A DNA stretch of 51,754 nt from Escherichia virus TH30. The stretch's first letter is position 1. Each line of letters begins with the position of its first letter. The DNA is taken from sequence record MT446404.1; one strand, given 5' to 3'. The notes under the pieces are model-generated. The model searched no databases, had not been told where the DNA came from, and saw only the letters and a list, made by a program, of their open reading frames with translations. A program made the position numbers and the translations under genes. Below, piece after piece: positions 28,820 through 49,478 of the stretch.

Positions 28820-29030
28820 CGACTTCTGCCTCCACTTCATCAGCCGCCTTGATGAGTGCCGCCGCCAGTTCACGCGCCTGCTCTGCTGTGTAGGTCATAC
28901 CTGTACCATCCGCCCGAGAATCCGGTAAAAGGTCCAGGTGCACGCGCTTACGCATCTTGCCAAACGGAACCTTGATTACTGAGATTTCTGTTTCCTGATT
29001 CCAGGATGAGTTAACTCGAATATCTCTCAT
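28812..29030 (-). CDS. small acidic protein, paralogue family member 3 (72 aa)
   Basis: C-terminus YTAEQARELAAALIKAADEVEAE. Confidence 0.5.
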   Translation of the reverse strand: MRDIRVNSSWNQETEISVIKVPFGKMRKRVHLDLLPDSRADGTGMTYTAEQARELAAALIKAADEVEAEVDE

Positions 29031-29224
29031 TGCTTTTCCGCCTCTTCCGCTACTTTAATGAGCGCCTCCGCCAACTTACGTGCTTGTTCCGGCGTGTAAT
29101 GAGCTATGGCAAAGCTATCCCCGTCGCTGTCTGTTTCAGTAAGACTTACCACGCCGTCATAATAGATTGAGGTTGACACCTCGGTGCTTACGCCTAAAAA
29201 ATCTTCGAAGATTACAATCTCCAT
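29027..29224 (-). CDS. small acidic protein, paralogue family member 2 (65 aa)
   Basis: C-terminus HYTPEQARKLAEALIKVAEEAEKQ. Confidence 0.5.
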   Translation of the reverse strand: MEIVIFEDFLGVSTEVSTSIYYDGVVSLTETDSDGDSFAIAHYTPEQARKLAEALIKVAEEAEKQ

Positions 29225-29226
29225 AA

Positions 29227-29439
29227 TTATTTCTTCTCCGCTTCATCTGCTGCCAGGATTAACGCTGCCGCTAATTTGCGCGCGTCATCAGGTGTATAGT
29301 GCATCATGCTTACATCGCAATCGTCAGGATCGAAGTCAATGGAGACTACAGCCTTGACTACTCCAGTCCGATTGGTTAGCACGCTAACCTCAGCGGCATC
29401 ACCAACCACATCCTCAATGCGTAAAATTTCCATAATCAT
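29227..29439 (-). CDS. small acidic protein, paralogue family member 1 (70 aa)
   Basis: C-terminus HYTPDDARKLAAALILAADEAEKK. Confidence 0.5.
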   Translation of the reverse strand: MIMEILRIEDVVGDAAEVSVLTNRTGVVKAVVSIDFDPDDCDVSMMHYTPDDARKLAAALILAADEAEKK

Positions 29440-29490
29440 TTCCTCTTTGTTGTCGATAGGGTAATCATAGCTGACTACCCGATTTATTGT

Positions 29491-29507
29491 TTAGCAATTC
29501 GTGCTAT
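29491..29507 (-). promoter_or_regulatory. conserved 17-bp motif, upstream stop TAG embedded
   Basis: Stop of 29504..30055 is the TAG of the motif. Confidence 0.55.
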
Positions 29508-30055
29508 TCACCGTTCAGGAGAGCTTTCGCTTTCCGGTAGAACTGGATGGCCTTCTCCACCTCATCGGCATCATAGCCATGGATTGTTGTCTGCGGTGGC
29601 ACGTAGTGAGAACGTCGCGCGTCGGATCGGTATTGGTTGCACCATCTGTACACGCCTCGTTCATCCATTCCCACCAGGGCCGGATGCACATAAATCTTAT
29701 CGCCAATGAGGCAAACAATTCCCGCCTCCTGTAGTGCTGGGATGATGTTATTTGTCAGGTCATGCATGATCCCTTCGCGACCGACGAATGGCTGGACCTT
29801 TCGGATTGCCTCGTATAGAGATCGAATGCCAGCAACTCCCTTCCCATTGCAGCACTGGCGGCTAATCCTGCTCACTACGACGCCGTATTTGTAGCTCAAC
29901 TTGACGCACAGCATCTCTTCGGCGCTGGGCCAGAACTTGAATGATTGACGGTATCCATTGGCATTGATTGCCACACGAAGTGGCGGCAGGTTATCTTGCC
30001 TGGCGACTTCCATCACCTTTTCATCGGTCAATTTATCTTCGTCGAAATTAAACAT
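29504..30055 (-). CDS. 183-aa protein sharing N- and C-terminal segments with the 527-aa P-loop protein at 35589..37172
   Basis: MFNFDEDKL...DNLPPLRVAINANGYRQS and GIRSLYEAIRKVQPF...CLIGDKIYVHP match both ends of the larger protein. Confidence 0.55.
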   Translation of the reverse strand: MFNFDEDKLTDEKVMEVARQDNLPPLRVAINANGYRQSFKFWPSAEEMLCVKLSYKYGVVVSRISRQCCNGKGVAGIRSLYEAIRKVQPFVGREGIMHDLTNNIIPALQEAGIVCLIGDKIYVHPALVGMDERGVYRWCNQYRSDARRSHYVPPQTTIHGYDADEVEKAIQFYRKAKALLNGE

Positions 30056-30591
30056 TAGTTAGTATCCTTAATCATTTCATGGTAACGGGCCAGGGCAATG
30101 AGAGCGCCTTCTTTCTGCTCTCCTTTCAGGTCGATGACGTTTGGTGTGATCTTGAGCAGACGAGCCTTGAACCTTTCAATAGCTGCCGCTTCTTTCTCAA
30201 CATCGGCAGTCTTTCGTTTGGTTGGCTTAAGTGCCCCAGGCTCAAGCTGGATTAACAGGTTCTTATCAGCGCCGTCGCCATCCGCCTTGCGTGCTACAGT
30301 TTCCTCTCCTGACGCCAGCCAGATAAAGCGATGCTTGACGTGCATATCAATATCCCGAAGCTCCTGCATTCTTGCTGCGGTGTTATAGATGTATGAACTT
30401 TTAAGCCCTGCGATCTCACGCCCAGGAGTCATGTACTCCCCCGTCACCTCGTCCAGTATTTCATCTGGATAATCATGACCATTGACCAGGTTGAATATCT
30501 TGCGAACCGGAACTACGCACAGCTTCTTGTCGGACTTAATTGCCTGGCGTACCATCTCGCGAATCACATCACCCAATGTTACCTTATCCAT
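30055..30591 (-). CDS. hypothetical protein (178 aa), first gene of the leftward early block
   Basis: ORF only. Confidence 0.45.
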   Translation of the reverse strand: MDKVTLGDVIREMVRQAIKSDKKLCVVPVRKIFNLVNGHDYPDEILDEVTGEYMTPGREIAGLKSSYIYNTAARMQELRDIDMHVKHRFIWLASGEETVARKADGDGADKNLLIQLEPGALKPTKRKTADVEKEAAAIERFKARLLKITPNVIDLKGEQKEGALIALARYHEMIKDTN

Positions 30592-31109
30592 ACTACCACC
30601 TCATTTGATTGTTGCGTTTAAGTGAGGTCATTATGATGAGAGTTAACGCGTAAGTCAACCGTAATCGCATGTAAAAATCAGGTCGGGAAACATTTCTGCC
30701 ATGTAGGCCTTGCCACACCTGATGTAAGTAGGCGGTATATCGTGTAACGCATCCTGAAAGGTGATTGCCTATATATGGCCTCATTACCCTGGCGGAATGG
30801 TCATCTTATATAGTAGTGGGAGATATTATCAAATTTGATGGAGGTTGCGCCTAGATAGTCGTTACACAGTATACATAGATATATATAATAATAATAATAT
30901 AGATAAATGGTTGTTATATATAGATATTTTATTGTAACTAATGCGTAAAACAGCGTATGCCGCGTATGCTCATGCCAAATCGTTACACGGCATACATTGG
31001 CTATACATGCGTTACGCACAATTACGCGTATGCGCTGGAAAACGTGTGGCGGGAAAATCCTACCAGGCGATCAGGGATCAGATCTCACCCCATCATTCCC
31101 CCCTCCAAT

Positions 31110-31215
31110 GAATCATTGCTCAATTCGCAACAATCGAAAACACCATTGCAAACGATGCAATATTGCTATATGTGCAATAGTGAAGTGAATCATTGCAATA
31201 GCTGCAACAATCCAT
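31110..31215. repeat. array of at least six ATTGC/GCAAT half-sites including palindromes GCAATATTGC and ATTGCAAT
   Basis: Read directly from sequence. Confidence 0.6.
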
Positions 31216-31226
31216 AAATCGAACGA

Positions 31227-31243
31227 ATAGCACTTTTTGCTAA
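31227..31243 (+). promoter_or_regulatory. conserved 17-bp motif ATAGCACTTTTTGCTAA upstream of first rightward gene
   Basis: Followed by ATGACCGATCAGGAGTGA, TATTAT and CATCGAAACGA (31277-31287). Confidence 0.55.
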
Positions 31244-31305
31244 TGACCGATCAGGAGTGATTCGCTATTATTACTTCATCGAAACGAGACATAGAGAGCA
31301 AGCAA

Positions 31306-31632
31306 ATGAAATACGAAAATCGCGGCCAGGACATCATCAAAATCGAAAACGGCGTTGAATATGTGATGGTAGCTTGCAAGGTTAACGGTATGGATTCATT
31401 CGTTTGGGAAGAAATCAAGCCGGAAGTTAAGAGCCTGACCTGTGTAGCCCAGCCTGACGCAGAACGCGATATTTTCACTCGCTACAGCGCTTATGAAATC
31501 GTTCGTGAAACTGCTTGCTTCTGGTGGATTAAGCCTAACGCTCAGTACCGTCACCCGCGCAAAATCAGCAAGCGCACCATGCGTGAAGCTGGTATCAAAG
31601 AAGCATACGCGGCAGAGTTCGACATCGCATAA
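31306..31632 (+). CDS. hypothetical protein (108 aa)
   Basis: ORF with RBS. Confidence 0.45.
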   Translation: MKYENRGQDIIKIENGVEYVMVACKVNGMDSFVWEEIKPEVKSLTCVAQPDAERDIFTRYSAYEIVRETACFWWIKPNAQYRHPRKISKRTMREAGIKEAYAAEFDIA

Positions 31633-31649
31633 ATAGCACGATTTGCTAA
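31633..31649 (+). promoter_or_regulatory. conserved 17-bp motif ATAGCACGATTTGCTAA
   Basis: Directly after stop TAA; followed by ATGACCAATCAGGAGTGA and CATCGAAACGA. Confidence 0.55.
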
Positions 31650-31706
31650 TGACCAATCAGGAGTGAGTTTGCTAAGATTCACCCCATCGAAACGAAGGAT
31701 ATAGAG

Positions 31707-31988
31707 ATGAAAAACGATATTCAGCAAATGGCCTACCGTATACAGGTCGAGGTTCAGGCCAAACAGAATGATGCGGTAATTCGTGCTGTTCAGCGATTTT
31801 ATGGATGCGCTGAAATAACTGAAAGCATCGCTGACAGAACTACTTGCGTCTTTGAGCATGGCGACGCGGTGCTTCGTGACAAGAAAACGGATAAGGTGAT
31901 CATCATCGTTCGTCCGCATACGACCATCGATCATGACTACGGCGTTACTTTTCAGGCTAACTATTTAACGTTCGACGGGAAGAAATGA
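31707..31988 (+). CDS. hypothetical protein (93 aa)
   Basis: ORF. Confidence 0.4.
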   Translation: MKNDIQQMAYRIQVEVQAKQNDAVIRAVQRFYGCAEITESIADRTTCVFEHGDAVLRDKKTDKVIIIVRPHTTIDHDYGVTFQANYLTFDGKK

Positions 31989-32170
31989 TTATGACCACCG
32001 CTAAAATGTATTGTTACGTTGTGATTGCTGAGCCACGCGAGCCGGAATATGACAGCGAGGTGCACTGCGTATGCCTAAGTGAGCAAATGGCAGAGCAGGT
32101 TTGCGAGAAGATGAACGCAAGCGATCGCTTCAATACCTACGACTACTACGAAACGGAGCTACAGAAATGA
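31985..32170 (+). CDS. hypothetical acidic protein (61 aa)
   Basis: ORF, ATGA overlap with upstream gene. Confidence 0.35.
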   Translation: MIMTTAKMYCYVVIAEPREPEYDSEVHCVCLSEQMAEQVCEKMNASDRFNTYDYYETELQK

Positions 32171-32376
32171 TGTTTGACATTGTGCAGTTTATCGGGAGCG
32201 GCAACGAGTATCTGATCAGTTGCGACAACTCACGGTCCGAAATCTTCCGCCTGTTGGATGGTCTGCCATCACAAACAGCCGCGATGGATGAGCACATCAT
32301 TGAATGCGCGTTGTTGTCTGGCGGTGCGCGGGTAATTGGTCAGGCGAAAATCACCATCGAAATTTCACTAATCTGA
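32167..32376 (+). CDS. hypothetical protein (start probably ATGATG at 32167)
   Basis: ORF 32101..32376 trimmed. Confidence 0.3.
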   Translation: MMFDIVQFIGSGNEYLISCDNSRSEIFRLLDGLPSQTAAMDEHIIECALLSGGARVIGQAKITIEISLI

Positions 32377-32380
32377 GGAA

Positions 32381-32809
32381 ATGCAAATGAGACACGGCAT
32401 CATTTTTAAGGCGACGGACGGCACCTCGCGATTCATCATGCCATCAGGCCGGATGTATATGTGGGCTTACGGAGCCTGGCGCTTCTACTATCAGTTCGTC
32501 GATTCAACCTATAAACTTATTCGCTCAGCAGTCGGCAAGAAAGGCAGTAAAGTATTCCTGGCCTCAAGCCGCAAGGTATTCATGGAAAAGCGTGTGGCGC
32601 TCGATCCGATTGACTACTTTGCCGTTGAGTTCATGGGGCATCGGTTCAGTAAAGGGCGATTGTTCCGCAAAGGTGAGATAGCAATGGCACAACAAAATGC
32701 GGCTGTTGATTTCGGTAAAGCGGCACACCAACGCCTGACTGGTTATCAGCCATGCTTTCCGCCAACGCCGTTTTATGCTCACTATAAACGACCACCAAAA
32801 AATCGTTAA
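32381..32809 (+). CDS. hypothetical protein (142 aa)
   Basis: ORF. Confidence 0.4.
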   Translation: MQMRHGIIFKATDGTSRFIMPSGRMYMWAYGAWRFYYQFVDSTYKLIRSAVGKKGSKVFLASSRKVFMEKRVALDPIDYFAVEFMGHRFSKGRLFRKGEIAMAQQNAAVDFGKAAHQRLTGYQPCFPPTPFYAHYKRPPKNR

Positions 32810-32826
32810 ATAGCACTTTTTGTTAA
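32810..32826 (+). promoter_or_regulatory. conserved 17-bp motif ATAGCACTTTTTGTTAA
   Basis: Directly after stop; followed by hairpin and CATCGAAACGA. Confidence 0.55.
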
Positions 32827-32827
32827 A

Positions 32828-32846
32828 AGCCCCTCGCGGGCTTTTG
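32828..32846 (+). terminator. hairpin AGCCC-ctcgc-GGGCT plus T-run
   Basis: Read from sequence. Confidence 0.5.
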
Positions 32847-32890
32847 CTATTATTACTCCATCGAAACGAAGCAATCACGGAGACACAAAA

Positions 32891-33196
32891 ATGATTAACA
32901 TGAACCTTTTCACTAAAGCTGACCACGAAAATATGCAAGCGCTGGCAGACCTTTTCGCCTCCGCCGAAATGGCTGAGATGTTCATGACTGAGAATGAGTT
33001 CCGTGATGGCATCAGTAACTCAATCGAAACTAATTTCGGTGATGCTCGTATCACTGGCGCGATGTTCGCAAACGTTGCTCGTAAATTCTTCCAGTCATTC
33101 CGCGACGCTCGCCACGCAAAAGGCGCTTTCCGCTCCTCGATGGATACTGCTGAAGAGATTAATGCATACATCGAACGCAATAGCACGAATTGCTAA
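32891..33196 (+). CDS. hypothetical acidic protein (101 aa)
   Basis: ORF; last codons NSTNC-stop lie inside the next motif. Confidence 0.4.
   Translation: MINMNLFTKADHENMQALADLFASAEMAEMFMTENEFRDGISNSIETNFGDARITGAMFANVARKFFQSFRDARHAKGAFRSSMDTAEEINAYIERNSTNC
33180..33196 (+). promoter_or_regulatory. conserved 17-bp motif ATAGCACGAATTGCTAA overlapping the 3-prime end of the upstream gene
   Basis: Followed by TATAGT and CATCGAAACGAAACGA. Confidence 0.55.
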
Positions 33197-33262
33197 ACCT
33201 CAATGCCAAGGATGGCGTATAGTTACTTCATCGAAACGAAACGAGCACACCGGAGATAAAAA

Positions 33263-33502
33263 ATGAGCATCCAGGCCACTAAAACAGAAAAGCGTCTCTT
33301 CACTAAGCCTGGTTCAAAAGGCGTTGAGATGATGTTGGTAAACGGTATCGTGTTTAATAACTGCGGCAATGTTCGCGTAGGAAACAAATATACCTGGCTG
33401 AGAACTCTCCTTACTGAAGATAGCCTCAATGCAATGATCATTAACGGTACATTAATTGAAGTCCAGGACGACTGGAAGTTTTACACAGCAAAGCAGCACT
33501 AA
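33263..33502 (+). CDS. hypothetical protein (79 aa)
   Basis: ORF with RBS GGAG. Confidence 0.4.
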   Translation: MSIQATKTEKRLFTKPGSKGVEMMLVNGIVFNNCGNVRVGNKYTWLRTLLTEDSLNAMIINGTLIEVQDDWKFYTAKQH

Positions 33503-33556
33503 TAAATTATATCGCCGCCGGACGACATCCGGCATAAATCAAATGAGGAAGTAAAA

Positions 33557-33781
33557 ATGTCAGTTAAAGCTCAGAACGTAGTAGCACACATCGAATCCAA
33601 AGGCCGCGCAATCATCAAGCTGGACCGTGCCGCAGGCGTTAGTCAAATCACCATCACGCGCCGAGAGTTCAACCGCTACGTTGTTGGCACTCATCCAGGA
33701 TCAATCATCCGCAGCCTTACCCGCGCCGAGATGGTCAACCTGTTAAACGACAACTCACTTTACATCAATTCCTGGAGCTAA
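33557..33781 (+). CDS. hypothetical protein (74 aa)
   Basis: ORF with RBS. Confidence 0.4.
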   Translation: MSVKAQNVVAHIESKGRAIIKLDRAAGVSQITITRREFNRYVVGTHPGSIIRSLTRAEMVNLLNDNSLYINSWS

Positions 33782-33783
33782 CA

Positions 33784-33999
33784 GTGCATCAAGATAATTT
33801 CTGGAGCCGCCACCGCGCGGCACTTGAAGCCGGACTCAATGAAGAGTGGGCGCTCAAGGTTGCTTACGGATGCATCGAACTCGATGACGCATTGGGCGTT
33901 ATGGATATGGATCTGGAAAGCGAAAGCAACCAGTCAGTAGACGGAATCGGGGATGATTTCGACTACCGCTTAAAATTTGATGACGGAATCCCGTTCTAA
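33784..33999 (+). CDS. hypothetical acidic protein (71 aa)
   Basis: ORF. Confidence 0.35.
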   Translation: MHQDNFWSRHRAALEAGLNEEWALKVAYGCIELDDALGVMDMDLESESNQSVDGIGDDFDYRLKFDDGIPF

Positions 34000-34008
34000 G
34001 GTGAGATC

Positions 34009-34248
34009 ATGAAAGTAAAATGCACTAACGTAATCACCAGCACCGACAAGAAAGTTTTGACACCGTTCGTAAAAGGCTCTGTATACTACGCTGAGCCGCT
34101 AATCATTAACGGCAAGGTAATCCCGAACGAATGGTTAATTAATGGCGCCGAGCGACCGCACAAGCACGATACGGGGTGGATTGCCATTGCTGCGTGGCCC
34201 AGCGGATTTACCATCATCGGCATCGCAACGTTTGACGAGGTGAAATAA
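34009..34248 (+). CDS. hypothetical protein (79 aa)
   Basis: ORF with RBS GGTGAGA. Confidence 0.4.
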   Translation: MKVKCTNVITSTDKKVLTPFVKGSVYYAEPLIINGKVIPNEWLINGAERPHKHDTGWIAIAAWPSGFTIIGIATFDEVK

Positions 34249-34406
34249 TGCTCAAGCCATCCGATTTGAATTACTACGACAACGACACGATCGCGAAACT
34301 CTCAGGTCAAGGATGGTATCCATGGAGCACCAGCGCTCAGGTTGAAGATTTGCAAAGCAGTTACGAAATCACACAGAAAGCAATTGAGAAGGCAAAGAAG
34401 AAATGA
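34248..34406 (+). CDS. possible 52-aa protein (MLKPSDLNYYDNDTIAKLSGQGWYPW...)
   Basis: Below ORF-track cut-off; fills gap with TAATG and ATGA overlaps. Confidence 0.3.
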   Translation: MLKPSDLNYYDNDTIAKLSGQGWYPWSTSAQVEDLQSSYEITQKAIEKAKKK

Positions 34407-35086
34407 AAAAGGTAATTTACTGCTTGTTCGACGGTTCCGGTATCGCTGGTCTACCATGGGCGGAAAATGGTCACACCGTCTACTGCTTCAACGCGGACTC
34501 TGGTAATCATGGAGAATATCACATCAAGATGCAGCATGAGAATATCCACTACGTCAACATGTGGATTGACAAGGATTTCATCACCAAGTGCGAATTGCTC
34601 GGCCTGCCTCCGGCGCAAATGGTTATCGGCTTCCCTGATTGCACGCTGTTCTCTCAGTCAGGATCGCAGCATGAGCGCGGGGAAGATGAACTGGCGTACG
34701 CCCTGGCAAATGCGAAGCTCGTCGAAGAAGTCGGTAATCACTTCCAGGCACCATGGATGGTTGAGAATCCGGTAGGTAAGCTGTCAAGCCTGTGGCGTAA
34801 GCCTGACTTCTACTTCAATCCGTATGAGTACGGCGGGCTAATGAAGGCTCACGATCTACCGTACCACGAAAAAATGCCTAAATACGACGGCTACACGAAG
34901 AAAACTTGCATCTGGCATGGCAACGGATTCGTTGAGCCGGTTAAGAAGCCTGGCCCGATTAACATTGGCTTCTTTTGGGGATGGAAATTCCTCGGAGGGA
35001 AGTCTGCTAAGACAAAGCAGTTGCGCTCACTGACTCCACGTGGATTTGCGCGCGCCGTATACCTGGCGAATCATTTAACCAAATAG
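34403..35086 (+). CDS. compact DNA cytosine-C5 methyltransferase-like protein (227 aa)
   Basis: LFDGSGIAG (motif I FxGxG-like), GFPDCTLFSQSG (motif IV PC-like with Cys), ENPVGKL (motif VI ENV-like). Confidence 0.5.
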   Translation: MKKVIYCLFDGSGIAGLPWAENGHTVYCFNADSGNHGEYHIKMQHENIHYVNMWIDKDFITKCELLGLPPAQMVIGFPDCTLFSQSGSQHERGEDELAYALANAKLVEEVGNHFQAPWMVENPVGKLSSLWRKPDFYFNPYEYGGLMKAHDLPYHEKMPKYDGYTKKTCIWHGNGFVEPVKKPGPINIGFFWGWKFLGGKSAKTKQLRSLTPRGFARAVYLANHLTK

Positions 35087-35099
35087 CACTAATTGCTAA
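35083..35099 (+). promoter_or_regulatory. conserved 17-bp motif ATAGCACTAATTGCTAA, upstream stop TAG embedded
   Basis: Followed by terminator-like hairpin and CATCTCATCGAAACGAAAC. Confidence 0.55.
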
Positions 35100-35100
35100 A

Positions 35101-35118
35101 GCCCTTCGGGGCTTTTCC
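35101..35118 (+). terminator. hairpin AGCCC-ttcg-GGGCT plus T-run
   Basis: Read from sequence. Confidence 0.5.
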
Positions 35119-35164
35119 TGTATATTCATCTCATCGAAACGAAACACACTAAAGGAAAATAATC

Positions 35165-35518
35165 ATGGCTACCACACTTACGAAAAACTTCGTCACCTCC
35201 GACAACCGCCTTCTGAAAGCTCGCGTGAAAGATGAAGTAGAGCAAATCAAGGTTGATGGCAAGTGGGTTAACCTTGACATCAAGGGCCGTTACATCAAGA
35301 CTAAAACCCTTTACGTGACTAAGATTAACCACAAGTCTTCCGTTAAAAAAGACTTCACGCAAGGTAAGCGCTATCAGGTTGACATGCACGCCGGACTCGG
35401 TAGTAACGCTGGTTACATCTTCGATAACGACGGCGTAGCATGGCAGTTGTACCGCTCGGATGACGTCGGATTCGAAACAGTATGCGGAACATACCGATTT
35501 GAGGCTGCGTATAAATAA
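35165..35518 (+). CDS. hypothetical protein (117 aa)
   Basis: ORF with RBS AAGGAAA. Confidence 0.45.
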   Translation: MATTLTKNFVTSDNRLLKARVKDEVEQIKVDGKWVNLDIKGRYIKTKTLYVTKINHKSSVKKDFTQGKRYQVDMHAGLGSNAGYIFDNDGVAWQLYRSDDVGFETVCGTYRFEAAYK

Positions 35519-35588
35519 GTAGCATTTTTTGGCAAGCGGTTTTACCATAGGTGCGTTAACATTAGCGCACCAACTAAGGAGTTTTTTA

Positions 35589-37172
35589 ATGTTTGATTTT
35601 AACGAAGATAAACTGTCAATCGATCAGGTAATGGCTGTAGCCGCTGCCGACAACCTGCCGCCTCTGCGCGTTGCCATTAATGCGAACGGGTACAGGCAGA
35701 GCCAGTCATTCTGGAAAGCCCCAACCGAAATTGACTCAGGCGGTGACAAATATCCGGTAATCTCACTTGGTAACGATTATGATGTCGTTGGTAAACTTTC
35801 AAGCAACGCCGCCCGTTCTGTTCAGTTCCCTGAGTCGTCCGCATACATGCATTTCCTAGGATGCATATCAGCCGCCATGCTGGGCCGATTTACGGTTGAG
35901 TATCACGGAACACAACAGCCTACCGCGCTGTACGTCGTAACCAGTCAGCCACCATCGACAGGTAAGTCAGCCATCAACTCACTTTCGCTGGCCCCGATGA
36001 TCGCAGAAACTGAGCGACTAAACGAAATCCGAAAGCGTGACCGCAAGAAGATTATGGCTAAGCTTTCCGCTCTATCCAAGGAGATGAAGCAGGAGAAATC
36101 ACCGTCCGACATGGCGGCGCTGTTTGAGGAAAAAGAAGAACTGGAGGAAAAACTGGAACGGCTTTGTGACATCGTGTTCCCCGTATCCGATACCACGCCG
36201 GAAGGTCTTGCGCGAATCAACAACCGACAGGGCAACTTCTCTGTGATCTCGGATGAAGCAACGAGCGTAAACTCACTGTTAGGCATGACCTATGGTGACG
36301 GCTCAAAGAAAACGAACAGCGAGCTTGTGCTTAAGGCATGGGATGCTGGTAACGTATCTATCGCGCGTGCGAACGCAGACAATAACATGAGCTTTATTGC
36401 GATGGGGTGCATATCTGTAATTGCACAGGATGAAACAATCAACGCGATCATGAACGCCGGCGCGCGCGGTATCGGTGTATCCGAGCGTTTCTTGCTTGTG
36501 CGAGAGAAGTCATTCCTTGGCGAGCGTGTATTCGTCGATGAGAAAGGTGAATCAACATACGAGCCGATTGATGGCGGACTCAAGGCGGACTACTTCCGTT
36601 TGGTTCATGAGATCATGAGCGAACACGAAGTAAACCTGACAGTAAGCACGTCGGCGATGAAATATCTCAACCGTGCTCGTCAGGATATGGAGCCTCACCT
36701 TGCTGACGGCGGGAAGTATTCACACACAATGCTGCGCGGCGCGCTTGGTAAGTTCGATAAGCAGGCAATCAGGATTGCTGCGGTTCTTCACACTGTGCGT
36801 AACTGGTTCAATCCAAACGGCGGCAGCCCGCAGAAGTCCAGAGAGATTGAACTTGATACAATGCAAGAAGCCGTGATCATGTTCCAGGAACTCAGTAAAA
36901 CTTATCTGTCATCTGCCAACGCTGCTGGTCACGCTGGCGACCATGCGGAGATGAACAAGCTGATTGACATACTGATCAAGCAAGGCAAGAACGGGAAAGG
37001 CGTTGTAGGTGTCCGATCCCTATATGAAGCGGCGCGTAAGGTTAAGCCATTTGAGGGCCAGGCTGGCGTAATGACTCGCATCAAAGACCACCTGATCCCT
37101 ATGCTGGATGAGAAAAACTATACGTGCCTTATTGGTGATAAAATTTACATTAATCCGCGGCTGCTGGGGTAA
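35589..37172 (+). CDS. P-loop NTPase of unknown function (527 aa from ATG at 35589), possibly replication-associated
   Basis: AGGAG RBS 8 nt before ATG 35589; Walker A-like QPPSTGKSA; termini shared with 29504..30055. Confidence 0.5.
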   Translation: MFDFNEDKLSIDQVMAVAAADNLPPLRVAINANGYRQSQSFWKAPTEIDSGGDKYPVISLGNDYDVVGKLSSNAARSVQFPESSAYMHFLGCISAAMLGRFTVEYHGTQQPTALYVVTSQPPSTGKSAINSLSLAPMIAETERLNEIRKRDRKKIMAKLSALSKEMKQEKSPSDMAALFEEKEELEEKLERLCDIVFPVSDTTPEGLARINNRQGNFSVISDEATSVNSLLGMTYGDGSKKTNSELVLKAWDAGNVSIARANADNNMSFIAMGCISVIAQDETINAIMNAGARGIGVSERFLLVREKSFLGERVFVDEKGESTYEPIDGGLKADYFRLVHEIMSEHEVNLTVSTSAMKYLNRARQDMEPHLADGGKYSHTMLRGALGKFDKQAIRIAAVLHTVRNWFNPNGGSPQKSREIELDTMQEAVIMFQELSKTYLSSANAAGHAGDHAEMNKLIDILIKQGKNGKGVVGVRSLYEAARKVKPFEGQAGVMTRIKDHLIPMLDEKNYTCLIGDKIYINPRLLG

Positions 37173-37175
37173 ATT

Positions 37176-37550
37176 ATGTTTCTTCTGGATCTGTACCGTT
37201 TTTGCGAAGGCTATGAAAAATTCAACCGTCAGCACCTGGCGGTATTCATATACAAGCACAGGGAGTGTGAGCGACTGGCTAAGGCCGCAGGCGTTACTCC
37301 TCGCTATTTCGCGTCATCAGCCTCAAAGGAGTTCATTGCAAGATGTATGGTCGAAGGATACATTAACGGGGTGAACAACTGGTACTGGTCCAATGGGGCG
37401 CAAAAGAGGCCATTTGAATTTCATTTCAAGTGCTATGGCGGTGAGAACGATCGCTATACATGGGAGATGATGAACATAGAGAAGATGAGCGATAATGAGT
37501 TATTCGGAAAGCCAGGTTGTAATCGACGCGATAATCAGATGCAGTTCTGA
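37176..37550 (+). CDS. hypothetical protein (124 aa)
   Basis: ORF. Confidence 0.4.
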   Translation: MFLLDLYRFCEGYEKFNRQHLAVFIYKHRECERLAKAAGVTPRYFASSASKEFIARCMVEGYINGVNNWYWSNGAQKRPFEFHFKCYGGENDRYTWEMMNIEKMSDNELFGKPGCNRRDNQMQF

Positions 37551-37687
37551 GAATGGGATTAGCGAGGACGGGCTTAACCAAGCCCTTCTTTCAATGCTTA
37601 ACTCATCCATGCGCGCCGGACGACGTGATGAGCATACTCTATGCAATAATGAAGGTGAATTATTGCTGCTGGTGCAAAGATTTGGAT

Positions 37688-37720
37688 AAAAAAGGGAGCC
37701 TTTCGGCTCCTTTTATTTTT
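37688..37720. terminator. bidirectional terminator between rightward early block and lysis cassette
   Basis: A-run, GGAGCC-tttc-GGCTCC, T-run. Confidence 0.65.
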
Positions 37721-38099
37721 TGCGTCGTTCCAGCCAGATTGAAAGAGCAATCATCACAATGCCGATGAACAGGAATACCAGTCCGGCAATCAGATTACCT
37801 TTCGAGTCATCGTTCCTGATCTCAATCTTATCAGCGATGATGGTGTCAGCCTTGATGCTTGAGGTGCTGACAGACTTCCCGTTTGACGTATCAACCTTTC
37901 CTACCTTTGAATCTTTTATAGTGGTGTCGTTGTCGTTTGACTTATCCACCTTTCCGGTAACGCCTACCGTTTGCTTCACGTTCTCGGCACCAGCCTGTGC
38001 GCTAATTTCTGGCTTACTGCCAATTAAACCAGTCAGCGCCGAAGTGGCTGAACAACCTGAAAGCATAATCACTGCCGCGATCACAATTCCCTTAAGCAT
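37713..38099 (-). CDS. unimolecular spanin-like protein (lipoprotein with C-terminal transmembrane helix, 128 aa)
   Basis: Lipobox LSGC at N-terminus and hydrophobic helix LIAGLVFLFIGIVMIALSIW then RRKK; last gene of lysis cassette. Confidence 0.6.
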   Translation of the reverse strand: MLKGIVIAAVIMLSGCSATSALTGLIGSKPEISAQAGAENVKQTVGVTGKVDKSNDNDTTIKDSKVGKVDTSNGKSVSTSSIKADTIIADKIEIRNDDSKGNLIAGLVFLFIGIVMIALSIWLERRKK

Positions 38100-38563
38100 A
38101 GTTCTATCTCCGCGTTGCGCCTGTTAACCAGGCCTTTGCTAACAACCTTCTTGCCATTTACCGTAATTTTATTCCACATAGAGAACGCCTCACAACCTCC
38201 GCGAATATCACCACGATTCATACGCCTGATAGTTGTTGAGTTCCTCATCGCGTTAGTGCCGATATTATAGCTAAGAGAGTATAGTGCGGCTCTGGTGCTC
38301 ACTGGAACATCAACTTTTAGGGCTTTATCAACAGCTGCCCTGTGAATAGATAGGTGCTTAATCAGAAGTGAGTCGCACTCACTCTGAGTGTACACCTTGC
38401 CGAGAATAACGTCAGGTCCAGTAATCCCCTGGCATACTGTCCACACCCCCGCAACATCCTTGTATGGCCTGTACTCAACACCTTCATGCTCATTTAGGAA
38501 TGGAACAGCTAGCGCTACAGCTCCCGCCACAGCGCCACCAATAATCTTGTTCTTTATACTCAT
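38081..38563 (-). CDS. SAR endolysin (phage lysozyme fold with N-terminal signal-anchor-release helix, 160 aa)
   Basis: N-terminal Gly/Ala-rich weakly hydrophobic helix KIIGGAVAGAVALAVPF followed by EGVEYRPYKDVAGVWTVCQGITG catalytic-type region. Confidence 0.75.
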   Translation of the reverse strand: MSIKNKIIGGAVAGAVALAVPFLNEHEGVEYRPYKDVAGVWTVCQGITGPDVILGKVYTQSECDSLLIKHLSIHRAAVDKALKVDVPVSTRAALYSLSYNIGTNAMRNSTTIRRMNRGDIRGGCEAFSMWNKITVNGKKVVSKGLVNRRNAEIELCLREL

Positions 38564-38565
38564 TA

Positions 38566-38781
38566 TTATTTACTCCTGATCCTCATTGCTTCACGGAGAT
38601 CACCATCCTCAAGGGCTTTATGTAGTGCCCTGCTATCACGCCAGCGAAGCCATGCCCCGAAGATACCAAAGCACACAGCTATTACTAAGCCGATAATGCC
38701 GATTATTGTATTGTCAGATAAGCCGCCACCCATAGCTACTCCGCTACCGGATAAGGCGGCTGCGTCATAGAAATGTTTCAT
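38566..38781 (-). CDS. holin, probably pinholin class (71 aa)
   Basis: Two hydrophobic helices and charged C-terminus; directly upstream of SAR endolysin. Confidence 0.6.
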   Translation of the reverse strand: MKHFYDAAALSGSGVAMGGGLSDNTIIGIIGLVIAVCFGIFGAWLRWRDSRALHKALEDGDLREAMRIRSK

Positions 38782-43487: not shown

Positions 43488-43504
43488 TTAGCAATTCGTG
43501 CTAT
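43488..43504 (-). promoter_or_regulatory. conserved 17-bp motif; upstream stop is the TAA of the motif
   Basis: Followed by hairpin with TATTAT loop and CATCGAAACGAAG. Confidence 0.55.
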
Positions 43505-43916
43505 TCAGCATATCTGCAACGGCTTTCTTATATTCCTCCTGGCCGTATGCCACCGCCGCGAACCCGCCACGCTCTCGGACACGACGAAGGAACTCTTTCT
43601 GCTCCTTGCTGACTGGTGATGCCTTGCCTTTCCCGCTTTTATTGACTCGCTTCAATTCTATGGCCCCGAAAGGATATTTACCGAACGGACCGAGAAGGAA
43701 CACAAAGTCACTAACCCCCTTCAACAATCCGCTCTGAGCATCAACCAGCGCCGAATGCATAGTTTTCTTACCCTCATTAACTGTGTGCCAGAACAGGAGG
43801 TAAGAGTGATTTACATTAGTCCAGGTCACGCAATCGACCTGGTGCTTGTTCTCTGTCCATGTATCCGATTTGTCTGGAGTGTAATATTCCAGGTAGTCGC
43901 CTTTATCTGTAATCAT
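43488..43916 (-). CDS. VRR-NUC-like nuclease (142 aa)
   Basis: SDFVFLL...GAIELKRVNKSGK...SKEQKEFL pattern resembles PD-(D/E)xK VRR-NUC core. Confidence 0.45.
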   Translation of the reverse strand: MITDKGDYLEYYTPDKSDTWTENKHQVDCVTWTNVNHSYLLFWHTVNEGKKTMHSALVDAQSGLLKGVSDFVFLLGPFGKYPFGAIELKRVNKSGKGKASPVSKEQKEFLRRVRERGGFAAVAYGQEEYKKAVADMLNSTNC

Positions 43917-46015
43917 AAGTTACCGTCCAATCCGAAATCCTTACGTGAAATGATGTCCTCACCTTTTGCATTCTTGCGGTGAGTTACCCGCACCGGATGT
44001 GCTATGTGGTGAGCGTTGTTTAAAATCATTTTAGCACTTCTGTAAGCCGCCATTAACTTTGCGATCTTACTGTCATGCACATGAGGTAACACCCCTTTCT
44101 GTTTCCATATCGTGTGACATACCTGCGCCGTTGACTGCGGGAAGAACTTTTCATACGCGATGAAATTAACTCCAACTGAATCTGTCAGATCGTAACGATA
44201 AAGAATACCAGTCTGATTGCGTGTCAGCGTTACTTCAAAACTATTCACTGTGCACCAGTCGTTTTTGGTGTAAGCCTTACCAGTCAGGTTATCGTTGGGA
44301 TCTTTCAGACTCACATCACAGCAACGGCATATTCTCGCCACTACGTCATTTTTAGCGCCACATCCCTTAACAATCACCTCGCCAGTGCGTTCATCAACCT
44401 GGTCTTCACATATGCGAGACTTCCAAAAATACTCGCACCGATTTCCGTTTTCATCTCTGTGAATGCAGCGGCGAGCGTAAAAACTGTTCTCGGTTCCGCA
44501 CAGTTCACATTTTTTCGGTTCTTTCTTACCATCAAAGCGGCGCTGATACTGAGCCTCTTCAAGAATCGGATCAAAGTAAAGCTGACCAAGCTCATCCATA
44601 GTGCCAGCGAAATCCCACACCAGGTGATCTTCTTTCACCATTCCCATTGCTTTTTGCCACGGTTTGAGCAATCGCATACCTCGACCAAGCAACTGTATTA
44701 ACAGAGTAAGCGATCCTATCTTGCGCAGGATTACCGAGAAATCCCAGAACGGAACGTTAACGCCAGTGGTTAGCGCCACTACCTGGAATATGTATTTAAT
44801 CTCGCCACGGTTCGCTGCTTCCAGTATCGCTTGTCGCTTTTTGGTGTTTGTCTTCTCCGTGATTATCTCATAGGTAGCGTCAGGTGGCAGATAGCTCGCC
44901 GCCTCTTTGCAATGGCGCTGGCCTGAGCACGTAATCAGTACACCATTTCGCTTCTTCGCCTCTTCGACTACCATTCCCATTATTCGCTTGGTCATGCTGG
45001 CGTTATCATGGATTTTCTTCTCCATCGCCTTCATTTCTTTCTGACCGAAGTCTGCCGTGCCATCCTGGCTGGACGCCTTGAACTCATCAAGATCATATCC
45101 AGCGTCTCCGACACTTCCGAAGATGGTTGGAACAACGGAACCGAACTCAATCAGGTAGCTGGTGTCGATGTTAGTAACCTGCTCACGCCAGAATCCAGGT
45201 AGCTTAGGGTTATCGACAACGATCGGGGCCGTACCTCGGAACTCAGAACCAGTCATGCCGAAGATGCGTAATTCCTTCCCGTTCTTCTCTTTGCATCGGC
45301 GCATTAATTCAGTGATGATTATCGTGTACTGGCTTCGCTTGGTGCCAAGAACAGGCTCGCCAGTCTTCCTGCTTATCAGTAATTGCTTATCCATCACCTG
45401 GACACCAACCTCTACGCCGTCAAGGTATCCATTGACATAACCTTCGCTGTTTTTCGGGTAGTCAACGAATACACGCTCATCTTTTTCAGCGAGCATCATC
45501 TCAATCGTTTCTTCATTGTCGATGGCGGCGGCAAGGTCTTCCCAATCCACCTGGTGACATTCATCAATCCCCAGCACCATAGGTGTAAAATCACCAAGCG
45601 CCTTAAACAGACCGTTCGCAACCGAGCCTTCCGATCCAACAACGATAGGAAAGTAAGCTGATTTTGTGTTCAGGCCAGCACAGTAAACTGAGTTAGGAAC
45701 GCCGAAGTTTGAGATTTCTTCACTATCCTGAGCAACAATGTCTCCCTGGCGCGCCAGTATCATCATCGAAAGGCCCATCTCTTTTACGCGAGATGCGATC
45801 ATAGCAAAGCCGATTGTTTTACCTGCCGATACCGACGCCTTGACAATGAATGGATGTCTGTAGCGAGCAATGCGCTTGCCGATCTCATCATACATTACGC
45901 ATTGATATTCATAAGGAACCATGTCACCGAGCGTGAATTTATCCTGAATCTCTTTAATCTTCTGCGGGCCAAGTTCTTCTATCTGTTTTTTAATGGATTT
46001 AATGCGCATAGCCAT
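43913..46015 (-). CDS. SF2 ATP-dependent DNA helicase with C-terminal zinc-ribbon (700 aa)
   Basis: Walker A SAGKT, motif II DECH, C-terminal CxxC...CxxC clusters. Confidence 0.75.
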   Translation of the reverse strand: MAMRIKSIKKQIEELGPQKIKEIQDKFTLGDMVPYEYQCVMYDEIGKRIARYRHPFIVKASVSAGKTIGFAMIASRVKEMGLSMMILARQGDIVAQDSEEISNFGVPNSVYCAGLNTKSAYFPIVVGSEGSVANGLFKALGDFTPMVLGIDECHQVDWEDLAAAIDNEETIEMMLAEKDERVFVDYPKNSEGYVNGYLDGVEVGVQVMDKQLLISRKTGEPVLGTKRSQYTIIITELMRRCKEKNGKELRIFGMTGSEFRGTAPIVVDNPKLPGFWREQVTNIDTSYLIEFGSVVPTIFGSVGDAGYDLDEFKASSQDGTADFGQKEMKAMEKKIHDNASMTKRIMGMVVEEAKKRNGVLITCSGQRHCKEAASYLPPDATYEIITEKTNTKKRQAILEAANRGEIKYIFQVVALTTGVNVPFWDFSVILRKIGSLTLLIQLLGRGMRLLKPWQKAMGMVKEDHLVWDFAGTMDELGQLYFDPILEEAQYQRRFDGKKEPKKCELCGTENSFYARRCIHRDENGNRCEYFWKSRICEDQVDERTGEVIVKGCGAKNDVVARICRCCDVSLKDPNDNLTGKAYTKNDWCTVNSFEVTLTRNQTGILYRYDLTDSVGVNFIAYEKFFPQSTAQVCHTIWKQKGVLPHVHDSKIAKLMAAYRSAKMILNNAHHIAHPVRVTHRKNAKGEDIISRKDFGLDGNL

Positions 46016-46107: not shown

Positions 46108-46581
46108 ATGAATGCAACTGATAAGCGTGCTCTTAACGGCAATAACGGAACTATCCGCACAGAAGATAAGAAGCAGCGTAAGCGACCGTCAGGTTACTAT
46201 GTTCTCAAGGATGAAGTAAAGGCCGGATTAAGAGCGCGACTTGATATTGTGTTTGAGTTCTACGGCAGCAAGGCGAATATGGCGAAGCAATTAAAGGTTA
46301 CTCGCCAGGCCGTTGAAGAATGGTTTAAACGTGGAATGATGTCGGCCCGTGGCGCTCAACTGGCGCACAACCGATACAAGCGAACTGGCGAAGGGTTCCG
46401 CGCTACATTCTGCCGACCGGATCTGCAATTCGACGGGAACGGAAAACCTCTGACTCTGAGGTGTAAAAAACGTCACATGCTTCGCGTCGTAACCGAGGCT
46501 GAACTAGCCACCAAGCCAGAATGCCGCTCATGGCGAAAAATCAAAGCAGCAAATGAAGCAGCACGAAAAGCTAAAGAATGA
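46108..46581 (+). CDS. basic HTH-domain DNA-binding protein (157 aa), candidate regulator
   Basis: HTH-like segment MAKQLKVTRQAVEEWFKRG. Confidence 0.5.
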   Translation: MNATDKRALNGNNGTIRTEDKKQRKRPSGYYVLKDEVKAGLRARLDIVFEFYGSKANMAKQLKVTRQAVEEWFKRGMMSARGAQLAHNRYKRTGEGFRATFCRPDLQFDGNGKPLTLRCKKRHMLRVVTEAELATKPECRSWRKIKAANEAARKAKE

Positions 46582-47578
46582 AAATCAAGGTTGTGCCATA
46601 ATTGGTGCAACCTTTTTTATTGGAGTAAAAACAGTGAACGAGCCGAATTACCAGAAAGAAGAAGTCCTGCCATACATGAAAGGATTATGGCGTGAGGCAT
46701 TGCAATCAATCTGTGGGTTGCAGTCCGTCGTATTCAATAAGAAGCACCAGCCATGCCCTTACTGCGGCGGCAAGGACCGTTTCCGTTGGACTGATGAACT
46801 GGACTCTCCTGGTGACGGCGGAGCTATCTGTAACGGATGCGGGAACGACAAGGGCGTTGGCTGGATGATGAAGCTGACTGGTGAGCCTTACAGTGAAGTG
46901 ATTAATATTCTCGGTCGATTCCTTGGGAAAGTTCCGCAGGATTACAAAGCCAAGGCTTACCGCAGGGCGTCACGCGTACCGGAAAAGGGATTAGGAAAGA
47001 TGGCAGATCATGAGTCATGTGTAGCTGTAATGGATCGCACGGAGAAGCGCGAGAACACCGATTTAAGCATGTATGAATGCTTAACCGAAGATTCATATGA
47101 CGTTGGCGTAAAAGTGCGTCAGAATGGTTCTGAAGAGCTAATACACGCACTACCTTGCTACATGGTTCATCCTGACGGGATTGATGAGGATATGTGTAAC
47201 GTCATGTTTGCTTATGATAATGGAGAATACACTTTCCTTGCGCGCGATTATTCTCGCGGCTCAGTTGTTAAGCTGGGGAGTGGCGAAGCGGATGCAGCCA
47301 TATATATGACAAGCGATCTTATTGATGGCTACAGAGTGAAGATGGCTACCAGTCAGGAAGTATGGGTGACTTTCTCCCCTGAGAATCTTGAGATCGTTGC
47401 TTATCGGTATCGTGGCGAAAGGGAATTGCGTGTAGCGTGTCCGGCAGATGATTTGAGAACGCTTTACATGGCTGACGAGCGAGATTTAAAAGTGGTTGTG
47501 CCGAACGGCGGAAACTTCAAAATGGGGCTTGAGCGAAAGCTATATACACCGCAGGATCTGATAGATAAGTATTCATAA
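46553..47578 (+). CDS. DNA primase with zinc-binding domain (341 aa; true start may be GTG 46634)
   Basis: CPYCGGKDRFRW...CNGCGN zinc motif; adjacent to helicase. Confidence 0.6.
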   Translation: MKQHEKLKNENQGCAIIGATFFIGVKTVNEPNYQKEEVLPYMKGLWREALQSICGLQSVVFNKKHQPCPYCGGKDRFRWTDELDSPGDGGAICNGCGNDKGVGWMMKLTGEPYSEVINILGRFLGKVPQDYKAKAYRRASRVPEKGLGKMADHESCVAVMDRTEKRENTDLSMYECLTEDSYDVGVKVRQNGSEELIHALPCYMVHPDGIDEDMCNVMFAYDNGEYTFLARDYSRGSVVKLGSGEADAAIYMTSDLIDGYRVKMATSQEVWVTFSPENLEIVAYRYRGERELRVACPADDLRTLYMADERDLKVVVPNGGNFKMGLERKLYTPQDLIDKYS

Positions 47579-49025: not shown

Positions 49026-49478
49026 TCAGAACGGGATGTCATCATCGAACTGCATAGACTGATTAGGTTGCTGCTTAGGCTGCTGGTGCTTTTGCTGAGG
49101 CTGCTGCCGTTGTTGTTGCTGGCCTTGGCCCTGCTGTGCTGGCTCACGCTGACTGAATTGCAACTGAGGTCGGATCATTTCGGCGGTCACATACACAGTG
49201 CCGTCATTTCCCTGGCGCGACGCTAAGTGAAGCGTGTCGGCGGAAATTGATACAACCTTACCTTCCTGGAACGCCTCATCATACCACTGCATGACGTTTT
49301 CTTTTGCAAAGAACGTAGCGCGGTAGTTACTGTAAACCGTTTCATCCTCGCCCTGCTGATTGCGAATCTTCATACGTTCTGACAGTTCGACGGCGTACAT
49401 TTTCCAGCGACCATTATTGTTACTGCCTTCTTTGGTGAATGGTGCTTTACGGATCTGACCAGTGATTACGTGTGGCAT
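49026..49478 (-). CDS. ssb: single-stranded DNA-binding protein (150 aa)
   Basis: Gln/Pro-rich linker and acidic C-terminal tail DDDIPF. Confidence 0.85.
   Translation of the reverse strand: MPHVITGQIRKAPFTKEGSNNNGRWKMYAVELSERMKIRNQQGEDETVYSNYRATFFAKENVMQWYDEAFQEGKVVSISADTLHLASRQGNDGTVYVTAEMIRPQLQFSQREPAQQGQGQQQQRQQPQQKHQQPKQQPNQSMQFDDDIPF

Follow-up and report, generated by a model that had tools for sequence, protein, structure and literature searches.

A motor-less paralogue of an MCM-like DUF3987 helicase in T1-like phages, possibly an early modulator of replisome assembly

In papillomaviruses (E8^E2 and E2-TR), phage phiX174 (A*) and adeno-associated virus (AAV; Rep52/40), shorter forms of replication proteins keep binding modules and modulate replication, and in phage P4 the protein Cnr, which is not homologous to the P4 alpha primase-helicase, binds and controls this enzyme. 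Many phages, satellites and integrative elements are believed to replicate by means of helicases of the DUF3987 family; to our knowledge, almost nothing is known about their recruitment and control. The N terminus of this helicase class is where primases fuse or dock, and the C-terminal winged helix (WH) of MCM proteins regulates activity or mediates loading contacts. Here we examine a 51,754-nucleotide stretch of Escherichia virus TH30 (sequence record MT446404.1; the whole stretch is called the window below), in which a DUF3987 helicase of 527 residues is accompanied by an opposite-strand gene for a 183-residue protein (hereafter the short protein) that corresponds to the two ends of the helicase joined without the motor. 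We tentatively propose that the short protein is an ancient, selected and catalytically dead derivative of the MCM-like DUF3987 replicative helicase, which acts early as a non-catalytic mimic of its docking modules and modulates replisome assembly.

Both open reading frames (ORFs) lie at the positions and on the strands given by an earlier note on this DNA (Table 1), which had read them as a domain-deleted paralogue pair, and the terminal similarity on which that reading was built is borne out: residues 1–48 of the short protein match residues 1–48 of the helicase (32/48 identical, 67%; BLASTP E 1e-19), and residues 66–129 match residues 464–527 (36/64 identical, 56%; E 5e-23). These E values, obtained with composition correction on, and the complexity of the matched motifs exclude a low-complexity artefact. 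A profile–profile comparison (hhalign) of 116 sequences of the short family with 68 of the helicase family lengthens the C-terminal match to residues 56–129 against 454–527 (probability 99.4), and the short protein can thus be described as the helicase minus residues 49–453, rejoined through 7 residues and lengthened by 54 at the C terminus. The central Walker-A domain is lacking, as the note had said: residues 49–453 of the helicase, which carry the DUF3987 AAA+ domain, are missing from the alignment, and the short protein has no Pfam match at E <= 0.1. On the basis of these alignments, the short protein is a paralogue of the helicase by descent and not itself a helicase. The nucleotide identity of about 75% given previously was too high, as we measured 62% (89/144) over the N-terminal part and 59% (113/192) over the C-terminal part, with the best local blastn segments at 70.5% over 105 nt and 71% over 62 nt; third codon positions of the window pair are 38–40% identical. 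Along its full length (residues 1–183) the short protein matches positions 1–179 of the phrog_7327 profile (E 1.5e-95), which is annotated as of 'unknown function'.

The full-length protein, the ORF of which opens with ATG behind AAGGAG, is, judged by its sequence motifs, a clear member of the DUF3987 / superfamily 6 (SF6) MCM-like helicases, and unwinding activity is predicted for it. Pfam DUF3987 (PF13148) covers residues 81–430 with 134.8 bits (cut-off 27), Walker A (PPSTGKS) lies at residues 121–127 and Walker B (VISDE) at 219–223, and GKS 125–127, DE 222–223 and S221 are invariant in 68 helicase homologues; its structural model has an MCM-type AAA+ fold with a C-terminal WH. ATP-dependent DNA unwinding has been shown for a distant family member, AgaPH (PMC11724360).

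The AlphaFold2 (AF2) model of the short protein (predicted local distance difference test (pLDDT) 87, predicted template-modelling score (pTM) 0.71; pLDDT >90 over residues 11–140) recovers both terminal modules. The N module consists of three short helices (residues 11–20, 25–33 and 36–41, the same in the short-protein and helicase models) and the motif LPPLRVAINANGYRQS..W, and W42 is invariant in both families. The following helix and WH are also built as in the helicase (helices 55–67, 77–84 and 96–110, strand 74–76, hairpin 114–123), with the order H1-b1-H2-H3-b2-wing-b3 of a WH over residues 56–129. In both proteins the N module is acidic (isoelectric point (pI) about 4.5) and the WH basic (pI 9.3–9.6; 9.3 in the short protein). 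The WH occurs as two allele types, one with a helicase-like helix 3 (M.RIKD.LIP.LD) and one, the window type, that reads MHDLTNNIIPALQEAG and has no basic residues there. The C-terminal extension seen by the note is real and conserved within the short family: a disordered linker of low pLDDT (residues 141–160) leads into an amphipathic, conserved helix (residues 163–180; YDADEVEKAIxFYRKAKxLLNGE), and the tail has no match beyond the short family in a library of 1.84 billion proteins or in a PDB sequence search.

The duplication is old. In 14 genomes in which the short gene was paired with its own helicase gene, third-position identity is 0.26–0.48 (that is, near saturation), whereas amino-acid identity has been retained at 52–69% in the N module and 27–70% in the WH. 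Among orthologues of the short gene, the ratio of nonsynonymous to synonymous substitution rates (dN/dS; Nei–Gojobori) is 0.14–0.46 overall and below 0.6 in each module; the tail helix (0–0.27) is among the most constrained parts, and the strongest constraint common to both proteins falls on the N module, which is also kept by miniature versions of the gene (see below). These substitution patterns indicate that the short gene is real and under purifying selection, and the case for an old, maintained duplication is stronger than the nucleotide figure in the note had implied. Recent gene conversion between the inverted copies is ruled out because third-position identity stays within this range in 14 of 14 genomes, including L013/L014, where the WH is 70% identical to that of the helicase. 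In neighbour-joining (NJ) trees of the WH and of the N module plus WH, the 39 short proteins sampled all group in a single clade from which helicases are absent, which argues for a single origin of the family; several independent origins are not supported by these trees. An NJ tree of the 48-residue N module alone does not resolve the branching between short and helicase proteins.

A gene of phrog_2794 lies just 3' of the helicase gene and, in the window (37170–37178) and most relatives (L001, L015–L021), begins in the helicase frame one codon past the helicase stop (the junction reads ..NPRLLG*xMFLLD..), so that read-through would fuse the two products. Residues 130–139 of the short protein are weakly like the first 10 residues of this product (M-x3-D-[VL]-x2-[WF]-C), and given this resemblance to the start of an in-frame gene, the duplication may have spanned the junction. 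Derivation of the tail from the gene 3' of the helicase was not adopted: the register fits, hhalign pairing M130 of the short protein with M1 of the phrog_2794 product, but the match is weak (E 0.13) and is a hint only.

What was retained in the short protein are non-catalytic appendages of an MCM-type helicase (that is, an acidic three-helix N module and a basic WH with its preceding helix). Given the roles of the corresponding ends in this helicase class and in MCM proteins, and that the constraint common to both proteins is strongest on the N module, we tentatively favour a non-catalytic mimic. The short protein would be made very early, from a sigma-70-type promoter and by translational coupling to the adjacent DUF7174 gene, and would engage the partners of the terminal modules of the helicase (primase, neighbouring helicase subunits or DNA). 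With such a partner occupied, helicase recruitment and replisome assembly would be modulated, most likely restrained or timed, and the short protein would be an accessory tuning factor and not a core replication protein. The suggestion of the note that the short protein might regulate, or compete with, the full-length NTPase is plausible in light of the models.

Several observations weigh against a docking-module mimic. The putative recognition helix of the window lacks the basic residues of the helicase (TRIKDH is replaced by HDLTNN), and the WH of some alleles shares no more than 27% identity with that of the helicase. Most Drexlerviridae have no short gene, T1 included (neither the short gene nor DUF7174 was found in T1): with tblastn, 816 phage records have helicase-type matches, and only about 105, almost exclusively E. 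coli phages, carry the short gene in full (Rogunavirus-like AHP24, AHS24, Jk06, C119 and e4/1c, the ESCO41/50EP group, JulesPiccard and AugustePiccard). Among 1.84 billion representative proteins, the family profile returned 52 matches, all of them members or fragments of the short family or T1-like helicases. Helicases are 90–100% identical where the short proteins are 44–87% identical (100% against 68% between 50EP and the window), and the alleles are thus not co-inherited, a pattern that speaks against tight co-adaptation of the pair. In blastn comparisons, recombination breakpoints interrupt the short gene around codon 37 and within its final 20 codons, and phage e4/1c has a separate WH allele. 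Nonsense, frameshift and early-TAA alleles occur in several lineages, as in phage DTL (L008 8671–9195), where codon 141 is changed from GAG to TAG, and in the vB_EcoS-12397 group (44,219-bp genomes, 43 records; L012 10001–10531), which has TGA at codon 141, adjacent to the aligned position in DTL. In-frame miniature versions of 82, 72 and 51 residues in metagenomic phages (P0256, P0263 and P0265) lack the WH and retain only the first 22–32 residues and the tail helix. Being mosaic, uncoupled from a near-invariant helicase and knocked out or shortened in several lineages, the short gene is, as far as genome comparison can tell, accessory and its role dispensable.

The stop codons of DTL and the 12397 group arose independently at the WH/tail border, with the tail still recognizable in frame downstream. 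The 82-residue version (L028 6001–6249) joins N residues 1–32 to the tail and takes the place of the short gene behind DUF7174, on a 48-kb contig whose helicase is intact.

By its gene content and nearest relatives, the window comes from a T1-like (Drexlerviridae) phage. Positions 29000–38000 are closest to Escherichia T1-like siphophages (megablast; TH21 best at 93%, followed by CJ19, P817, 50EP and ESCO41), of which 50EP is classified in Drexlerviridae, Nouzillyvirus, and PHROG annotation gives a T1-type gene set, including single-stranded DNA-binding protein (SSB; 49026–49478), Erf, exonuclease VIII and two methyltransferases (other members are listed in Table 1). Leftward and rightward early blocks diverge from a 700-bp intergenic region (30592–31305). 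The note had placed the paralogues on either side of a control region, which is right in loose terms: the short gene is the second leftward gene, at about 0.5 kb from this region, and the helicase gene lies about 4.3 kb to its right, towards the end of the rightward block. HNH homing-endonuclease genes are inserted immediately upstream of the helicase unit in 50EP (L001 10168–10665) and T1 (L027 46085–46624) and are absent from the window (35086–35165), marking a variable insertion hot spot beside the helicase.

Table 1. Features of the short-gene and helicase loci in the window (positions in nucleotides, residues in brackets).
Feature	Position	Strand	Evidence
Short paralogue gene, 183 aa, phrog_7327	29504..30055	-	ORF list, BLASTP against helicase, PHROG
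Short protein, N module (1–48)	29912..30055	-	BLASTP, models
Short protein, WH module (56–129)	29669..29890	-	
Short protein, family-specific tail (130–183)	29507..29668	-	Conserved columns, model
DUF7174 gene, 178 aa, immediately upstream of short gene	30055..30591	-	Pfam PF23796, E 2e-44
Putative sigma-70-like promoter TTGACT-17-CATAAT, before DUF7174 and short bicistron	30630..30658	-	Consensus scan, 10/12 positions
Boundary motif ATAGCAC-N3-TTGCTA, contains short-gene TAG stop, heads next leftward unit	29492..29507	-	
Same boundary motif, heads helicase-containing unit	35083..35098	+	
Further boundary-motif copies	31227–31242; 33180–33195; 43489–43504	+; +; -	
Full-length DUF3987 (SF6, MCM-like) helicase, 527 aa	35589..37172	+	
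Helicase N module (1–48), common to short protein	35589..35732	+	
Helicase AAA+ core (49–453), missing from short protein	35733..36947	+	
Helicase Walker A	35949–35969	+	
Helicase Walker B	36243–36260	+	
Helicase C-terminal helix and WH (454–527), common to short protein	36948..37169	+	
phrog_2794 gene (unknown function), 124 aa, just 3' of helicase	37176..37550	+	PHROG
Lysis genes	37713–38781		PHROG annotation
SNF2-type helicase	43913–46015		PHROG annotation
Primase, separately encoded	46553–47578		PHROG annotation

In every locus examined, the short gene directly follows the DUF7174 gene, the stop of which overlaps its start (TAATG in the window). In Shigella phage Sd1 (L022), DUF7174 is kept and the next ORF encodes an unrelated protein of 67 residues that begins MFDLDEC (MFDFNEDK in the short paralogue); the short gene seems, from this junction, to have been replaced by recombination within the first codons. 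The bicistron is preceded by a sigma-70-like sequence (Table 1), and most other units of the genome are headed by a boundary cassette that comprises ATAGCAC-N3-TTG(C/T)TAAA, a short hairpin, TATAnT, CATCGAAACGA, a ribosome-binding site (RBS) and ATG. The 16-nt core of this cassette has 24 matches against 1.3 expected (<=2 mismatches); its copies are co-oriented with the genes that they precede, and multiple sites are present in T1 as well. The cassette is probably the standard promoter/terminator module of the phage and a recombination linker. As one promoter is sigma-70-like and the other is the repeated cassette, the two paralogues appear to have promoters of different types, and we infer that the short gene would be switched on earlier than the helicase.

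Within the intergenic region, CGTTACAC..GTATAC and GCGTATGC repeats (30592–30880 and 30941–31035) flank an AT-rich core (30870–30940). The same repeats occupy the same positions in L009/L010, where DUF7174 is 90–92% identical and the short proteins are only 47–51% identical to those of the window, and are absent in 50EP, where DUF7174 is 45% and the helicase 100% identical. The repeats are candidate operators for DUF7174, and binding of the helicase or the short WH to the CGTTACAC/GTATAC repeats is excluded by this pattern. The right part of the region (31020–31300), in which ATTGCAA / GCAACAATC repeats accompany a C-rich tract, is near-identical in 50EP and the left part has diverged, which points to a recombination breakpoint near 30880–31020. 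A by-eye similarity of the ATTGCAA-repeat region to the T1 left end (pac) was not borne out in a blastn comparison with that end.

This setting bears on an alternative in which the short protein would be a stand-alone WH DNA-binding regulator (of transcription, an origin or a packaging site) that was assembled from helicase parts but acts independently of the helicase, perhaps with DUF7174. Its WH is basic, its gene adjoins the repeat-rich intergenic region, and it is probably co-translated with DUF7174, the allele of which co-varies with the left CGTTACAC repeats. However, the repeats track the DUF7174 allele and not that of the short gene, the recognition helix of the window type has no basic residues, and the miniature versions without a WH keep the N module and the tail. 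Given also that DNA binding would leave the strong conservation of the acidic N module unexplained, we consider such a regulator unlikely.

The scattered distribution of the short gene invites a different interpretation, that of a conflict protein that mimics the helicase as a decoy for a host defence factor that recognizes exposed modules of the helicase or as a dominant-negative 'poison subunit' against co-infecting or superinfecting T1-like phages. A patchy, mosaic and often-lost pattern is typical of phage anti-defence and exclusion genes, and the short gene is accessory, patchy and highly mosaic, sits in a variable early arm beside the first promoter, is frequently lost or truncated and has many divergent alleles against a near-invariant helicase. 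There is, however, no sign of positive selection in the dN/dS values and no match to PADLOC models or other families, and a poison subunit would also strike the nearly identical helicase of the phage itself; on balance a conflict role seems doubtful. A fuller version, in which the mimic shields the helicase from a host immune sensor or inhibitor as a decoy or is dominant-negative against competing T1-like phages, with the tail helix as effector or anchor and the truncations at the WH/tail border as products of host-specific selection, is in our view rather improbable.

Positive assembly, in which the short protein together with DUF7174 would serve as an adaptor or loader that brings the helicase or primase to the replication start, is suggested by the resemblance of its model to the lid and WH part of Orc1/Cdc6-type loaders and by its probably early expression, coupled to that of a second protein. 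Yet the WH is a very common fold, which makes this resemblance weak, the majority of T1-like phages that share this helicase replicate in the absence of the short gene, and natural nonsense alleles are found in propagated phages (DTL and the 44,219-bp group); we therefore see only a slim prospect for a loader. A non-functional, slowly decaying remnant of a partial duplication, for which the disrupted alleles and the in-frame deletion series (183, 82, 72 and 51 residues) could be cited, is highly improbable, as the reading frame and 50–70% amino-acid identity to the helicase have been kept while synonymous sites became saturated, dN/dS is well below 1, the family comprises about 10 clusters when grouped at 50% identity and more than 100 when grouped at 90%, and the helicase is not the source of the conserved tail helix.

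Searches for a known function returned little. PDB sequence searches with both family profiles and DUF7174 gave no match, PADLOC models matched neither the short protein nor DUF7174 nor the downstream gene, NCBIfam had no match for the short protein, and the only hits of a BFVD fold search were uncharacterised members of the family and T1-like helicases; the family is annotated as 'unknown function' or 'hypothetical protein' in all databases examined, and our literature search found no description of it or of its tie to the helicase. The motor-less copy marks out the putative autonomous binding modules of the helicase (that is, its first 48 and last 74 residues) and is a ready probe for their partners. 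If the short protein is indeed a competitor or decoy, it would represent a new means by which a virulent phage adjusts its own replication or interferes with that of others, and an uncharacterised PHROG family, possibly together with its obligate neighbour DUF7174, would gain a function. Should the effect of the short protein be neutral or marginal, the gene would still show cleanly how an accessory gene can arise when a core gene is duplicated and the copy loses its interior.

Compared with the DUF3987/SF6 helicases (for example, AgaPH, a PriCT-DUF3987 protein, and BcMCM), the short protein shares by descent the N-terminal 48 residues and the C-terminal helix and WH, but has no AAA+ or Pfam DUF3987 domain and carries a tail that is absent from the helicases; a motor-less paralogue of these helicases was not described in the papers that we found. 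The WH of MCM proteins (archaeal MCM, Mcm3/6/7 and MCM8) offers a further comparison, with the difference that here a WH is also made as a separate gene product, fused to the N module of the helicase. To the lid and WH of Orc1/Cdc6 and ORC2 the short protein is only 8–13% identical, and it has neither the P-loop nor the AAA+ base of Orc1/Cdc6-type initiators and loaders, such that the similarity of the models amounts to a weak resemblance and not to demonstrated homology or shared function. E8^E2/E2-TR, A* and Rep52/40 are isoforms of one gene that arise through alternative starts or splicing, whereas the short form of T1-like phages is a separate, anciently duplicated gene on the opposite strand; and whereas P4 Cnr is not homologous to the helicase that it targets, the T1-like short protein is, its modulating role being a proposal. 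Truncated replication proteins that keep their binding modules are thus known regulators, to which an anciently duplicated paralogue of an MCM-like phage helicase, motor-less and encoded by its own gene, would be a new addition.

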